Source: a virus (lineage: Duplodnaviria; Caudoviricetes). From it: DNA of 64,000 nucleotides. Below the pieces are notes generated by a model, which had not been told where the DNA came from, made no database searches, and worked only from the letters and a program-made list of their open reading frames with translations. Within the stretch, counting starts at the first letter, position 1, and every line of letters starts with the position of its first letter. Positions 614 through 43,155 of the stretch are shown piece by piece. The position numbers were made by a program, and so were the translations under genes. The stretch is taken from the IMG/VR virus record IMGVR_UViG_3300001525_000609, positions 1-64,000 of that record; one strand, written 5' to 3'.

Positions 614-1702
614 TTGAAGAGGATCGGGAACATCGACGGCGTGCCGTTGTTCGACCTTGCGTTGCGCAAGGAGAATATCATGGAGGCGATAGACAACGCA
701 TCCAAAGACCATGCCCACGATCCTCAAGTCATCTAGATGAAGGAGAACAAAGAAGATTGCGCATATTGGATTTGGCAAGAAATACACACAGCGGAGTTCC
801 ACTTTTCGAAATTCCGTTCAAGAGACATATACGAGCGCGGAAAGAAGCGCCACTTATGCTACACCGTCACCTTCCCCGACAGGGTCATTCAGCACGTCAT
901 CCTCCAGATTGTCGGACCCATCCTCTTGGGAACGAGCGTGAGGGACACATACGCCGCCCAGAAGGGCAAGGGCACGCACCTCTGCTCGATGAAGGTGCGC
1001 GAAGCGATCTACAACGACCCAGAGGGAACGAAATACTATCTTAAAGAAGACATCAAGAAGTACTTCGACAACATCCCGCGAGACATCCTCTTCAATCTTA
1101 TCAAGAGGAAGATAAAGGACCGCAAGATACTCAACATCATCCACGAGTTCATCTTCGGAGCGCCCGGGCGCAAGGGCTTGCCCATCGGCATGTATTCCAG
1201 CCAGATATTCTCGTCGTTCATGCTGACCTACTTCGACCATTGGGTGAAGGAAGTCCTGCGCATCAAGCACTGTTTCAGGTACATGGACGATTGGGTATGC
1301 TTCTCCAACAGCAAGGCCGCACTCCATCGCATCCATATGCTCGTCAAAGCGAAGCTCAAGGGGGATTACAGGCTGGAACCGAAGTCCAACTGGCGCATCG
1401 CGCCCACCGCCACGGGGCTGGACTTTGTCGGATACGTCCACTACTTCACGCACGTCCTACTGAGGAAGCGCAACAAGATACGCTACAAGAGGGTGTGCAA
1501 CCTTATCAAGCGCAACTGGCTCAAGGGCATCCCGCCGACCATCAATCAACTGGCGTCCGCACGCTCATACGACGGGATGGCGAGCTGGTGCGATGGAAAG
1601 AGACTAAGGCATTTAAACTACGGACAGATTATACAGACCTTGGGTAATCCATATGATACAACATGGAACAGTCAGGGGCACGCAGGCTGTGAAGCCTGCT
1701 AA
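614..1702 (+). CDS. DGR reverse transcriptase with an in-frame TAG at codon 41 (734-736); 362 aa if read through, 321 aa from ATG 737
   Basis: TTG at 614 follows GGAGG (601-605) and begins LKRIGN, the typical N-terminus of DGR RTs. Motifs FPDRVIQH, LKEDIKKYFDNI, GLPIGMYSSQ (GxxxSQ of DGR RTs) and YMDD are present. Confidence 0.9.
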
Positions 1703-2868: not shown

Positions 2869-3510
2869 GTGTATCCCCTTCTCATGCCTGAGCTAACGAT
2901 CGAAGTCGTGCCCGCTGATAGCGGAAAAGCAGAGAATGTCGCATTCTGTGAGTCTCCTGCCCCGAAAGACGATGATCCTGAGAAATCCGATGACGCGAAC
3001 CTCACCAGAGAACTCATCGCCGAGGAGCAGGATGCCGTTAATGATTACGAAGCCCTGTCTGATAAGGCTGAGACTGAGGATGCCAAAAAAGTCTATGATG
3101 ACATAGCGAATGAAGAAAAGGTTCATGCCGGAGAGCTCCTTATTCTCCTGTTGAAACAAGATCCTGCTGAAAAAGGCGCTAGAAAACAGGCGCATAAGGA
3201 ATCGGAGGAGGGGGATGATGACAGCGAGAATAAAGGTGATGACGGACCCGAAATCATAGGCGAGTCGTTCAGAGACATGTTCGAGAACGGTCGGAAGAAA
3301 GTCATCGCCAAGGCGATGGGGTGTGACGAGGAGGATTTTGAAAAAGGGACTGAAAAAGGCAGATATAAGCATAAAGAACCTAGGCCCCGTAAGCTAGGAA
3401 AGCCTCTTGGGAACTCTAAGCCAGATTCGCCTACGATTCCTCAGGATGAAGGCCCGCCTTCATCATTCGAACAGGGTCTCAGAAGGGGAGAACGGTTCGG
3501 GAAGTATTGA
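2869..3510 (+). CDS. Ferritin/rubrerythrin-like domain protein with acidic tail
   Basis: EEQDAVNDY...IANEEKVHAGELLILL..QDP matches the EE..A...Y / EEK.H di-iron helix pair. Confidence 0.6.
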   Translation: MYPLLMPELTIEVVPADSGKAENVAFCESPAPKDDDPEKSDDANLTRELIAEEQDAVNDYEALSDKAETEDAKKVYDDIANEEKVHAGELLILLLKQDPAEKGARKQAHKESEEGDDDSENKGDDGPEIIGESFRDMFENGRKKVIAKAMGCDEEDFEKGTEKGRYKHKEPRPRKLGKPLGNSKPDSPTIPQDEGPPSSFEQGLRRGERFGKY

Positions 3511-10397: not shown

Positions 10398-11751
10398 TGT
10401 AGGCGCCCTTGTCGGGAGGGGGTATGACGAGTTCTGGACAAACAAATCGTTGTATCGTCTCTGCAAGGGCGCTAAGGGGTCGAAGAAAACGACCACGTGC
10501 GCCATATATTACATCTATCACCTGATGAAGTACCCTGATGCGAACCTCCTTGTAGTACGCAAGGTCTATCGTACCATCAAAGATTCAGTGTTCGCCAATC
10601 TGATCTGGGCAATAGACAAGCTCGGCGTCACATCTCTTTGGAAGATCAACAGGTCTGACCTTGAGATGGTATACATCCCCACGGGACAGAAGATCTTGTT
10701 CAGAGGCATGGATGACCCATATAAGCTCGCATCCATCACTGTATCCAAGGGCGTCTTATGCTGGGTCTGGTTCGAGGAATTCTTTGAGATCACCTCTGAA
10801 GACGCATTCAACAAGCTCACTATGTCAATCCGCGGTCAGATGCCTCCTGGTTCGGGCCTATGGAAACAATTTACATGCACATTCAACCCGTGGTCGGAGA
10901 ACTCTTGGATCAAGAAACGCTTCTTTGACAATCCTGATGCCGACACGTTCACGTGCACGACTACGTATAAGGATAATGAGTTCTTAGATGAGGTCGATAT
11001 CGCCAGATATACAGCGATGTATAAGAACAATCCCCGCCAGGCGCGTGTCTATTGTGATGGAGATTGGGGCATTGCCGAGGGGCTGATCTACACCAATTGG
11101 CGCGAGGAGGAGTTCGACATACATGAGGTCCTCGCCAGTTCATCGAGGATAAAGACCTCGTTCGGGCTTGATTTCGGGTATTCCATATCATACAATGCGT
11201 TCATAGCCATCGCAGTGGATCTGGAAGGACAGAAACTATGGGTCTTTGACGAATTGTATTTCAGAGGCGTAGGGAATGCAGAGATAGCACGCAGGATAAC
11301 TGAAGCTGGCTACTCTAAGGAGCAGATATGGGCCGACCCCGCAGATTGTAAGTCTATTAGCGACCTGCAAAACGGCATCCCCTATGAAGAATATATCGAC
11401 GGAGTGCCCACGCTGACCAATTGGATACTGCCCGCCATCGTTCCTGCACTGAAGGGCCCCGATAGCGTCAATTTCGGGATAGTGCAGTTGCAATCATTCG
11501 AGATGATCATCCATCCATCCTGCATCAACACGATAAAAGAGCTTAACAACTATCGTTATGATCAAGATAAGGACGGGAATTTCCTGAATAAGCCGATCAA
11601 GGATTGGGATCACTTGATGGATGCAATGAGGTATGCCTGTTGCAAATGGTTCATCCGTGGAAAAGGAAAGGTCGTCGAAGCCAAAGGTTCAGACTCTAGA
11701 GGAGAGAAGAGATCACATGGCTCTAAGCGTGTGGTGTCTTCCGTCGTATAA
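10378..11751 (+). CDS. terL: Terminase large subunit (PBSX-like)
   Basis: Walker A-like GAKGSKKTT, LVVRK, FRGMDD, Walker B WVWFEE, TFNP, nuclease motifs GLDFG and DHLMDAMRY. Confidence 0.95.
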   Translation: MARQQIDVGALVGRGYDEFWTNKSLYRLCKGAKGSKKTTTCAIYYIYHLMKYPDANLLVVRKVYRTIKDSVFANLIWAIDKLGVTSLWKINRSDLEMVYIPTGQKILFRGMDDPYKLASITVSKGVLCWVWFEEFFEITSEDAFNKLTMSIRGQMPPGSGLWKQFTCTFNPWSENSWIKKRFFDNPDADTFTCTTTYKDNEFLDEVDIARYTAMYKNNPRQARVYCDGDWGIAEGLIYTNWREEEFDIHEVLASSSRIKTSFGLDFGYSISYNAFIAIAVDLEGQKLWVFDELYFRGVGNAEIARRITEAGYSKEQIWADPADCKSISDLQNGIPYEEYIDGVPTLTNWILPAIVPALKGPDSVNFGIVQLQSFEMIIHPSCINTIKELNNYRYDQDKDGNFLNKPIKDWDHLMDAMRYACCKWFIRGKGKVVEAKGSDSRGEKRSHGSKRVVSSVV

Positions 11752-23853: not shown

Positions 23854-23930
23854 AGTATTACTTTGTATTACTCATATATATTTATGAGTTTCGAAAATAA
23901 ATATTGAATTGAAATACAATGTAATTGAGG

Positions 23931-24003
23931 TAGTCCTGCTCGGATTCGAACCGAGGTCGCCTGATCCAAAGTCAGGAACGATTGACCGCTACGCCACAGG
24001 ACT
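23931..24003 (-). tRNA. tRNA-Gln(UUG), no encoded CCA, no intron
   Basis: Acceptor AGTCCTG/CAGGACT plus discriminator A; anticodon arm CCTGA-CTTTGGA-TCAGG; T arm CTCGG-TTCGAAT-CCGAG. The A1-U72 pair is typical of archaeal tRNA-Gln. Confidence 0.95.
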
Positions 24004-29405: not shown

Positions 29406-29795
29406 TCATTCTTCCACCTCCACCCACATGCCCTCTATCTCCCCAGCATACAAGGGAGGCTCCACCCACACGCTGTCCTCGTATGAGTACACGAGCCCAT
29501 ACTCGGCATCTATCCTGTATATGTCCTTGGACCCGACAGGGCTCATGACCTTGCCCTTGGCCATCATGCCGATGGCCTGGCAGAACGTGTGCTTCTCTGC
29601 AGGCGTGCTTGCCATAGCCTCCTCGTCCCATATCAGCTCGTGAGTGGTGTCGCCGCCGAGCCAGTCGCCGAAGTCGCTGCCCATGACCTGCATGGCGCCG
29701 CCTTCGAGCCTGTATCCGACGTCGTCCTGCCAGACCTCCTTCCCTGCGAGCAGAGCCTCCATCTTCTCTTTCGCTGTGTTCGCTTCCGTTATCAT
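29406..29795 (-). CDS. Two-repeat protein, distant DUF2829-like
   Basis: MEALLAGKEV... and FCQAIGMMAKGKVM...GMW repeats. Confidence 0.4.
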   Translation of the reverse strand: MITEANTAKEKMEALLAGKEVWQDDVGYRLEGGAMQVMGSDFGDWLGGDTTHELIWDEEAMASTPAEKHTFCQAIGMMAKGKVMSPVGSKDIYRIDAEYGLVYSYEDSVWVEPPLYAGEIEGMWVEVEE

Positions 29796-30163
29796 TCTAA
29801 TTCCTCCTCCTCTTCAGTCGCTTTAAATCCCTAACATTTCAGCTCTTGTTTATATCTGCGTCTTGCTTCCTTCTGGCATATATCTCTACATTCGGGACAA
29901 ACGAGCCAATCCATATATGCAGGGCCGAGCTTTACGAATCTGTCTCTGGCATCAGGCCTGAGCATAGTGCGCCACCCTAGTCCAGCAAGACCCTTTACGT
30001 CTGATCTCACATGAATGGAAGACTCGTCACGAGTCGCATCGTCGAATACCCGAGGCATATCGGACGATACGACCGTCAGAGTCATGGCCTGTTCTTTACC
30101 GCACCTGTCACAGACGACGTGACAGGAAATAGTGTTCTCTTCTCCATCGAATCTTAGTGTCAT
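29792..30163 (-). CDS. C4 zinc-finger protein with probable TAG readthrough at 29831-29833
   Basis: CDRC...CPEC. Reading through TAG adds GFKATEEEEELE and ends at TGA 29794-29792, overlapping the next ATG at 29795. Confidence 0.6.
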
Positions 30164-34809: not shown

Positions 34810-35253
34810 TCATCTCCTCTCCTAACGGATCAGACTCCTTTTCAATCTCAGATCCCTCAGCTCGCCTTCCATCACATCGATACGATGGTCCAGTTCGCAC
34901 CCGTCATCGGCATCGCGTATCATCTTCTCGATGGTCGCGATCCTCGCGTTGCATACAGGGCACTGGTAGCCCCATCTGCGTATACGCCAGCCTTCGTCAT
35001 CGACGATCCTCTTCTCGAACACTTCGGACAGGTCGTTCCACCCGCGCGCATCGGCATTCATGTCGAGGCTGACAGCCAGCTCCCCTCTGCACTCCGAGCA
35101 GGTTATGGTGAACTCCACAGACGCCCTGCACTTGCCGGGGTCGTGCAGCATGCACATCTCCTCGTTCCACCTGGCCATCTTGAACCTCTCGTTATCGTTG
35201 ATGAGCCTCCTCGCCAGCTCCTTCACTTCATCATCTTCAGTCATCTGCATCAT
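34810..35253 (-). CDS. Zinc-finger protein with probable TAG readthrough at 34822-34824
   Basis: CSEC...CPVC. Readthrough adds ERR and ends at TGA 34812-34810, overlapping ATG 34813. Confidence 0.55.
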
Positions 35254-42513: not shown

Positions 42514-42960
42514 TCAGCAGGCCATGTTCTCGACCTTCTCGGTGTCCAGCTCGCCGTCCGCATCGAAGATGCGGCTTCCGACGGGCTGCGCCCTGTCGAT
42601 GTCCCTGACCATCCAATCGATGAACTGGTCGTCGTCCTCGTCCTCGTCGTTTTCAGGCGCGTCGATGCGCTCGACGATGTTGAAGTCATCGTCGATGATG
42701 TACGTCCCGTTGTCGAGTGCCTCGGCAAGGTTGCTGAGGACGTCGATCCCGATGCTGAGGTTCCCGCCGAAGTAGTTGGCGATGACCTGGACGAGCCTCG
42801 CGAATCCGTAGTCGAACTGGTTCCCGGTCCTGAACCTGCGCAGCTGGGCATACTTGAGGAATGCCCTTACCGATCCGGCGTCTCCGTTCCAGTGGAGGTA
42901 GATCCCCACGCCGTTGTTCTCGTAGTTCTGCTTGGTCGTTATGATTGCTCTGTCTCCCAT
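42514..42960 (-). CDS. Phage-type hypothetical protein (IYLHWNG motif)
   Basis: MGDRAII...GVGIYLHWNG; conserved leader upstream. Confidence 0.6.
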   Translation of the reverse strand: MGDRAIITTKQNYENNGVGIYLHWNGDAGSVRAFLKYAQLRRFRTGNQFDYGFARLVQVIANYFGGNLSIGIDVLSNLAEALDNGTYIIDDDFNIVERIDAPENDEDEDDDQFIDWMVRDIDRAQPVGSRIFDADGELDTEKVENMAC

Positions 42961-43155
42961 ATCGATACTCTCCTGTTGTTCTGGAAGGGGTTTCTAAGCT
43001 GTTTGAACGGTTGGTGTTAGCGTCATTGCGGAGCGCCCGGGCACAGGCACGGGCACACGGGTCGGAGGGCGATCCTCCGGCTGTTCGCCGGAGGACAGCC
43101 CCCTGCCCCCTCAAGGGCAGGGGGAATCATGGACCCTTGTCATCGTCCATGTCCC

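Follow-up and report, generated by a model that had tools for sequence, protein, structure and literature searches.

A rare in-frame TAG codon in a small cysteine-rich gene of a tailed virus linked to pyrrolysine-using gut methanogens, and its probable partial read-through by the host

The TAG codon found within a small cysteine-rich gene of a tailed virus is probably read, at least partly, by the pyrrolysine (Pyl) tRNA of the host, which would yield products of 110 and 123 amino acids (aa) from the same gene; we put the probability of this reading at roughly 0.6. In-frame TAG is very rare in this virus and is most likely decoded by the pyrrolysine system of the host, in competition with termination. 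That of the focal gene does not look like a switch; it is best regarded as an amber codon that is near-neutral and tolerated because it sits at a variable position of the tail. The focal gene alone cannot prove sense decoding of UAG. The decisive case in the genome is the reverse transcriptase gene, and the focal gene is supportive but secondary. The sequence, the stop-codon census, the tails of the homologues and the internal TAG of the reverse transcriptase were observed directly, and from them we infer the identity of the host species, the insertion of pyrrolysine and the ratio of the 110-aa to the 123-aa product.

The analyzed stretch of DNA (the window) covers positions 1 to 64,000 of an 82,622-nt (82.6-kb) tailed virus genome, which carries about 105 genes and is 98% complete according to the CheckV estimate. 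The genes of the virus include a VapE-like primase, an SNF2 helicase, DNA methylases, ThyX, and a DGR reverse transcriptase; the match to a portal protein was weak, below the Pfam cut-off. Of the annotated relatives, Caudoviricetes sp. vir335 (BK063680.1) is the nearest, with Methanomassiliicoccales given as its host; its thyX showed 81% nucleotide identity to that of the virus, and its portal protein was 51% identical. The names of the "vir" type (e.g. vir335) presumably come from Medvedeva et al. 2023. A sister genome, CAVKKO010000001.1 (83,739 nt; designated rel), is collinear with the virus, with protein identities of 30-84%. This sequence was deposited as a Bacteroidaceae MAG contig although it is a near-complete sister of an archaeal virus, and the filing is probably a binning error. 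Kinship with viruses annotated to Methanomassiliicoccales, the sole basis of the host assignment, suggests that the virus is linked to pyrrolysine-using gut methanogens.

The body of the focal gene comprises 110 codons (29834..30163, minus strand); its product, small and Cys-rich, contains two CxxC pairs (CDRC and CPEC). Directly after the conserved Cys110 lies the in-frame TAG (29831..29833, minus strand), a candidate pyrrolysine codon or terminator. It is followed, in frame with the focal gene, by the 12 stop-free codons of the tail GFKATEEEEELE (29795..29830, minus strand) and by a TGA (29792..29794, minus strand), which forms an ATGA overlap with the start codon of the next gene (ATG, 29795-29793). 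The 3' end of the gene reads AAA TGT TAG GGA TTT AAA GCG ACT GAA GAG GAG GAG GAA TTA GAA TGA. The preliminary description had given the TAG as the end of the reading frame and the TGA on the next ATG as the end of the read-through product, and both positions were exact. Read-through would produce 123 aa (residue 111 at the TAG plus GFKATEEEEELE) and termination 110 aa.

The focal protein matched no entry of Pfam or PHROG, and Foldseek returned no match in the PDB. Its AF2 model had a moderate mean pLDDT of 67; the C-terminal helix was predicted to continue through the TAG position, and residues 110-123 showed a pLDDT of <50. Compared with rel, the gene body contained 22, 16, and 43 differences at codon positions 1, 2, and 3, respectively (29 synonymous and 35 non-synonymous), a pattern of the coding type, and it is under purifying selection. 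The codon-usage score of the gene was low (6.5-7.1), as would suit a TAG that arose from a mistake in sequencing or assembly, or that marks a decaying pseudogene. Such an origin is very unlikely, because the identical 110-aa product was called on two contigs and a version with 87% identity on a different assembly, the body is under purifying selection, and the start of the gene is ATGA-coupled to the gene upstream.

No PYLIS-like hairpin or stimulatory RNA structure was detected 3' of the focal TAG (fold z = -0.66). The TTTAAA near the TAG is a putative archaeal TATA box, and rel has TTTAGA there. The sequence around GGGATTTAAAGCGAC was considered as a recurring operator or promoter motif and rejected, as it did not recur in the window above chance. 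A block near the TAG conserved at 19 of 20 nt was unexceptional, since blocks equally conserved were found inside the body of the focal gene.

Two home-made gene calls of the 82.6-kb genome gave 73-81 genes ending on TGA, 17-20 on TAA, and 7 on TAG. Five of the seven TAG-ended calls were dismissed: four were antisense, off-frame, or very low scoring, and that at 527/614-736 was the N-terminal part of the reverse transcriptase. The TAG-ended ORFs at 2893-3372, 10566-10811, 11236-11493, 82364-82579, and 232-609, together with others, were antisense or off-frame artefacts or belonged to the DGR template region. One of these artefacts (2893-3372, minus strand) is antisense to a gene of the structural-gene arm (2869-3510, plus strand), whose acidic product looks ferritin- or rubrerythrin-like by eye (..EEKVHAGELL..) and had no PHROG match. 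The credible census of about 105 genes comprised about 80 genes ending on TGA, about 20 on TAA, and 2 on TAG (29831-30163 and 34822-35253), the same two that had been picked out by eye in the preliminary description. TAG terminators are thus nearly absent, so that the stop-codon census suggested there comes out in favor of TAG as a sense codon. The trinucleotides TAG and TAA are about equally frequent genome-wide (1192 vs 1043), whereas gene ends on TAG are far rarer than on TAA (2 vs 20; binomial p = 2e-5). Rel has about one credible TAG-ended gene, and vir335 as annotated has 95 TGA, 9 TAA, and 3 TAG. In 'Ca. Methanomethylophilus alvus', UAA and UAG account for 17% and 1.6% of the stops, respectively (Borrel et al. 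2014, PMC4153887), and the stop usage of the virus resembles that of this archaeon. In M. alvi, TAG was found by proteomics to be Pyl genome-wide (Kivenson et al., bioRxiv 10.1101/2024.09.30.615893).

The credible genes contained three in-frame TAGs: those of the focal gene and of 34822-35253, and an internal one in the reverse transcriptase gene. The second TAG-ended gene (34810..35253, minus strand; 143 aa) carries its TAG at 34824-34822 and has the 3' end TAG GAG AGG AGA TGA. Read-through would add ERR and end on ATGA, the TGA at 34812-34810 overlapping an ATG at 34813-34811. This three-residue extension is uninformative, because P0008, a homologue of the gene, already stops one codon short of the TAG. 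The products of both TAG-ended genes are small and zinc-ribbon-like, with two CxxC pairs each, and BLASTP revealed no paralogy between the two. An in-frame TAG upstream of gene 42514-42960 was rejected as a further case, as it lies in a conserved 5' leader with similarity at the nucleotide level, non-triplet indels, and no upstream ATG in rel. This leader (42961-43030, minus strand) is conserved with rel at the nucleotide level (TGACGCTA.., CTTCCAGAA, AGGAGAGTA) and is preceded, at about 43060-43125, by an inverted repeat of high GC content that resembles a promoter or terminator region. No TAG was found in the genome whose read-through would give a long out-of-frame overlap (category 4 of Kivenson et al.).

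The strongest evidence came from the DGR reverse transcriptase gene (614..1702, plus strand), which has an internal TAG at 734-736 (codon 41). In the alignment with the reverse transcriptase of rel, the 53 residues before the TAG aligned, including the conserved N-terminus KR[IL]GNI...NI.EA..NA.K, and the TAG aligned to Lys. The reverse transcriptase profile phrog_1423 matched residues 12-333 and so spanned codon 41. In the true-frame alignment of the window with rel, the TAGs of the reverse transcriptase and the focal gene were the only ones with homology on both sides. Judged from these alignments, the TAG of the reverse transcriptase would have to be translated, which provides independent evidence for translation of UAG during infection. 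Category 1 of Kivenson et al. requires that the extension exceed 15 aa and that the sequence after the TAG be at least 30% identical to known proteins, and extensions of <=15 residues are classed as not predictable (bioRxiv 10.1101/2024.09.30.615893). The genome falls into category 1 through the reverse transcriptase, with its internal TAG and homology on both sides; the 12-aa extension of the focal gene is below the category 1 length and belongs to category 2/3, for which decoding "cannot be predicted".

The sole tRNA detected in the virus by ARAGORN and Rfam was a tRNA-Gln (23929-24003) with the anticodon TTG, and the virus genome contained no suppressor tRNA with the anticodon CTA, no tRNA-Pyl, and no PylS. 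Any decoding of TAG would therefore be supplied by the host. The tRNA-Gln gene is what could be expected if the virus itself recoded TAG as Gln (code 15) with its own suppressor tRNA, which is extremely improbable, as the anticodon is not CTA, no other tRNA was found, in-frame TAGs number merely three in about 105 genes, and rel has the same tRNA-Gln(TTG) yet no TAG at the focal position. As in the stop-codon-recoded bacteriophages (crAss-like and Lak phages; code 15), the standard code cuts proteins at TAG. Suppressor tRNAs and numerous in-frame TAGs, concentrated in late genes, are features of those phages; this virus has neither. Insertion of Pyl by a host needs no cis motif (PMC12626013).

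The homologues of the focal protein carried an extension beyond the conserved Cys in three cases. P0002, the homologue of rel (L002:10001-10366; 65% identity), has TTT (Phe) at the TAG position and ends with CAATGA on the next ATG, and 6 of its 12 residues after this position match the tail in the window. P0004 (42% identity) and P0009 (39%) have Glu at the TAG position and extend 13 residues beyond the conserved Cys (EFFNTVMNAGDGE and EFYKSIMNAGDVR, respectively). The changes between these two tails are conservative (F/Y, T/S, and V/I), as expected for translated sequence, and the tail therefore appears to be coding in the P0004/P0009 lineage. An aromatic residue at +3 is common to all four tails (window, P0002, P0004, and P0009). 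The tail of 12-13 residues is thus an uninterrupted ORF in P0002, P0004, and P0009, and P0003 (87% identity) ends at Cys110 like the window product; this was the outcome of the search for C-terminal extensions in homologues that had been suggested earlier. The DNA encoding P0003, P0004, and P0009 was not found in the viral contigs, metagenome contigs, and phage collection scanned. In M. acetivorans, UAG serves both as stop and as Pyl, and Shalvarjian et al. 2025 decided between sense and stop by asking whether homologues have the extension, a criterion by which rnfA, whose homologues have no extension, was assigned to stop (PMC12626013). Under this criterion the focal gene points in the opposite direction to rnfA, because its homologues have the extension. 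The proposal that TAG is a sense codon, made in the preliminary description, is accordingly plausible and partly supported, by the few TAG ends, the homologue tails, and the internal TAG of the reverse transcriptase; TAG is not a general sense codon in this virus.

The tail itself gave a different picture, and it is here that an ordinary terminator has to be weighed. The TAG would then end a 110-aa protein, and the 36 nt after it would be an intergenic spacer, the recent relic of an ancestral tail lost by a nonsense mutation that did no harm because the tail is disordered; we regard this as a serious rival, though less likely than read-through. The tail comprises 36 nt in both the window and rel, with no indel, and 28 of the 36 nt are identical (78%; gene body 75%). 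The changes were 0 synonymous and 6 non-synonymous codons, distributed 3/2/3 over the codon positions, and the window-rel pair alone thus appears to carry no coding signature in the tail. This absence of synonymous-biased substitutions, like the low pLDDT of the tail, is what a terminator would predict. The Shine-Dalgarno sequence of the downstream gene, GAGGAGGAGGAA (29801..29812, minus strand), is a strong GGAGGA with a 6-nt spacer before the ATG, also in favor of a terminator, and read in frame it supplies the EEEE codons of the tail; in rel, GGAGGA is equally far from the ATG. Because of this overlap, the acidity of the tail, and its conservation in part, can be explained even if the tail is untranslated. 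The acidic tail had been put forward as independent support for read-through, a role it loses because GAG GAG GAG GAA is the Shine-Dalgarno sequence of the next gene read in frame.

The downstream gene (29406..29795, minus strand) encodes 129 aa, and an in-frame TGA seven codons 5' of its ATG makes an earlier start impossible. In rel, an extra 65-aa gene (L002:10363-10560, plus strand) is inserted exactly at the ATGA junction after the focal homologue, and the homologue of 29406-29795 sits one gene further downstream than in the window; this module swap falls exactly on start/stop overlaps. Since a different gene follows the focal homologue in rel, the tail and the ATGA junction travel together with the focal gene.

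In the minus arm (19093-45871), 23 of 53 genes (about 43%) end in D or E, and the 52 junctions comprise 12 ATGA overlaps, 9 other overlaps, and 10 gaps of 16-80 nt. The earlier statement, which ascribed acidic C-termini and (A/G)TGA overlaps to most genes of this arm, was therefore overstated. Many of the D/E C-termini stand immediately before the purine-rich Shine-Dalgarno sequence of the next gene and may be caused by it, its GGAGG often falling in the last codons; if true, this would be a systematic bias of C-termini arising from translation signals. With gaps of 16-80 nt at 10 of the 52 junctions, the 35-nt gap after the focal TAG is not odd, as an ordinary terminator would also have it. 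As a control, virtual read-through was performed on TAA- and TGA-ended genes with a gap of 1-80 nt in both genomes. The next ATGA was reached in 7 of 67 controls (about 10%) vs 2 of the 3 TAG-ended genes (Fisher p = 0.04 for both genomes and 0.009 for the window alone, in a post hoc comparison), and about half of the control read-throughs had at least 12 stop-free codons. The landing of both TAG-ended genes on ATGA is suggestive and would also be expected if a gene once coupled through ATGA had acquired a nonsense mutation. The coupling can hardly serve as independent support, for which it had been taken, because it follows from the start of the next gene against a chance background of about 10%.

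A terminating TAG seems to be present in vir335, where CDS 65865-66137 (TAG at 66135-66137) ends with GAA TAG G ATG. Read-through there would stay open for 100 codons, running out of frame across CDS 66139-66393, and would join CDS 66438-67145 in frame. From this arrangement the TAG at 66135-66137 is probably a true terminator (Kivenson category 4), and TAG would then terminate at least partly in the host of vir335. The 100-codon stop-free off-frame stretch (BK063680.1, 65865-67145) is odd for a genuine terminator.

Besides the points already named for it, an ordinary terminator would agree with the apparent termination at the vir335 TAG, with the end of P0003 at Cys110, which is explicable as plain truncation, and with the archaeal release factor, which competes at UAG (bioRxiv 10.1101/2024.09.30.615893; PMC12626013). 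It is opposed by the reverse transcriptase of the same genome, which needs UAG read-through and, as Pyl is inserted with no cis signal, makes some read-through of the focal TAG hard to avoid. The supposed relic has also acquired neither indels nor stops and is 78% identical to rel, against 75% in the gene body, while three homologues keep the tail as an ORF and both TAG-ended genes reach ATGA on read-through.

Partial read-through by the host is favored by the rel homologue, with TTT at the TAG, 36 nt and no indel, and the same ATGA ending; by the tails of P0004 and P0009, the internal TAG of the reverse transcriptase, the rarity of TAG stops, and the kinship with Methanomassiliicoccales viruses; and by the ATGA landing of both TAG-ended genes with no TAG that would cause a long out-of-frame overlap. 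It is weakened by a tail with no coding signature, by P0003 ending at Cys110, and by an extension of <15 residues, as well as by the vir335 terminator TAG, the dual meaning of UAG in Methanosarcina, and the half of the controls with at least 12 stop-free codons.

Compared with known systems, the virus resembles the Pyl-decoding archaea, for which Genetic Code 34 has been proposed: hardly any gene terminates on TAG, a small number of genes have TAG at sites occupied by ordinary codons in homologues, decoding needs no cis element, and short C-terminal extensions reach a nearby backup stop. Unlike in those archaea, the genes are viral, and the virus itself encodes neither pyl genes nor tRNA-Pyl. 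The focal case also differs from Kivenson category 1 in being a 12-residue extension with a 4-nt overlap, which places it in the undecidable categories 2/3. As for M. acetivorans RdmS, which occurs in a long and a short form, and for rnfA, a single UAG is expected to give two products; unlike for rnfA, the extension in the focal homologues indicates sense, here predicted from sequence. The Q-beta A1 protein and retroviral gag-pol read-through likewise yield a C-terminally extended product by decoding a stop. In contrast to these, the stop of the focal gene is not conserved (Phe or Glu in homologues), no RNA structure lies downstream (z = -0.66), and nothing points to a distinct function of the extension. 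No paper on pyrrolysine in viral proteins was found in the literature searched, and the preprint of Kivenson et al. (bioRxiv 10.1101/2024.09.30.615893) makes no mention of "virus" or "viral".

A course of events can be proposed as follows. The ancestral protein may have been small and zinc-ribbon-like, with a flexible tail of 12-13 residues after the last conserved Cys and a terminal TGA that overlapped the start codon of the following gene. The first tail codon of this virus is TAG, as is probably the case for the 87%-identical P0003. Methanomassiliicoccales hosts charge a UAG-reading tRNA with pyrrolysine, use no cis element for this, and hardly ever end their own genes on TAG. In a host of this type, the UAG would most likely be read at least partly as pyrrolysine to give the 123-aa product (Pyl111 plus GFKATEEEEELE), and the 110-aa product would result where the release factor wins. 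After read-through, the next gene would be expressed by termination-reinitiation at ATGA, and after termination at the TAG, through its own strong Shine-Dalgarno sequence.

A further-reaching possibility, which we advance tentatively, is that all three TAGs are pyrrolysine codons and none a designated terminator, so that viral proteins, including the 123-aa one, would contain the 22nd amino acid. If so, the virus would be written for the expanded code of its host, like other viruses of pyrrolysine-using methanogens, and standard annotation would truncate or split its proteins. The focal gene is a modest supporting case, because its homologues carry the extension. If viral UAG is routinely decoded as Pyl, annotation of methanogen viruses under code 11 would be systematically wrong at such sites, and viral expression would depend on the Pyl supply of the host, tied to methylamine metabolism in the gut.
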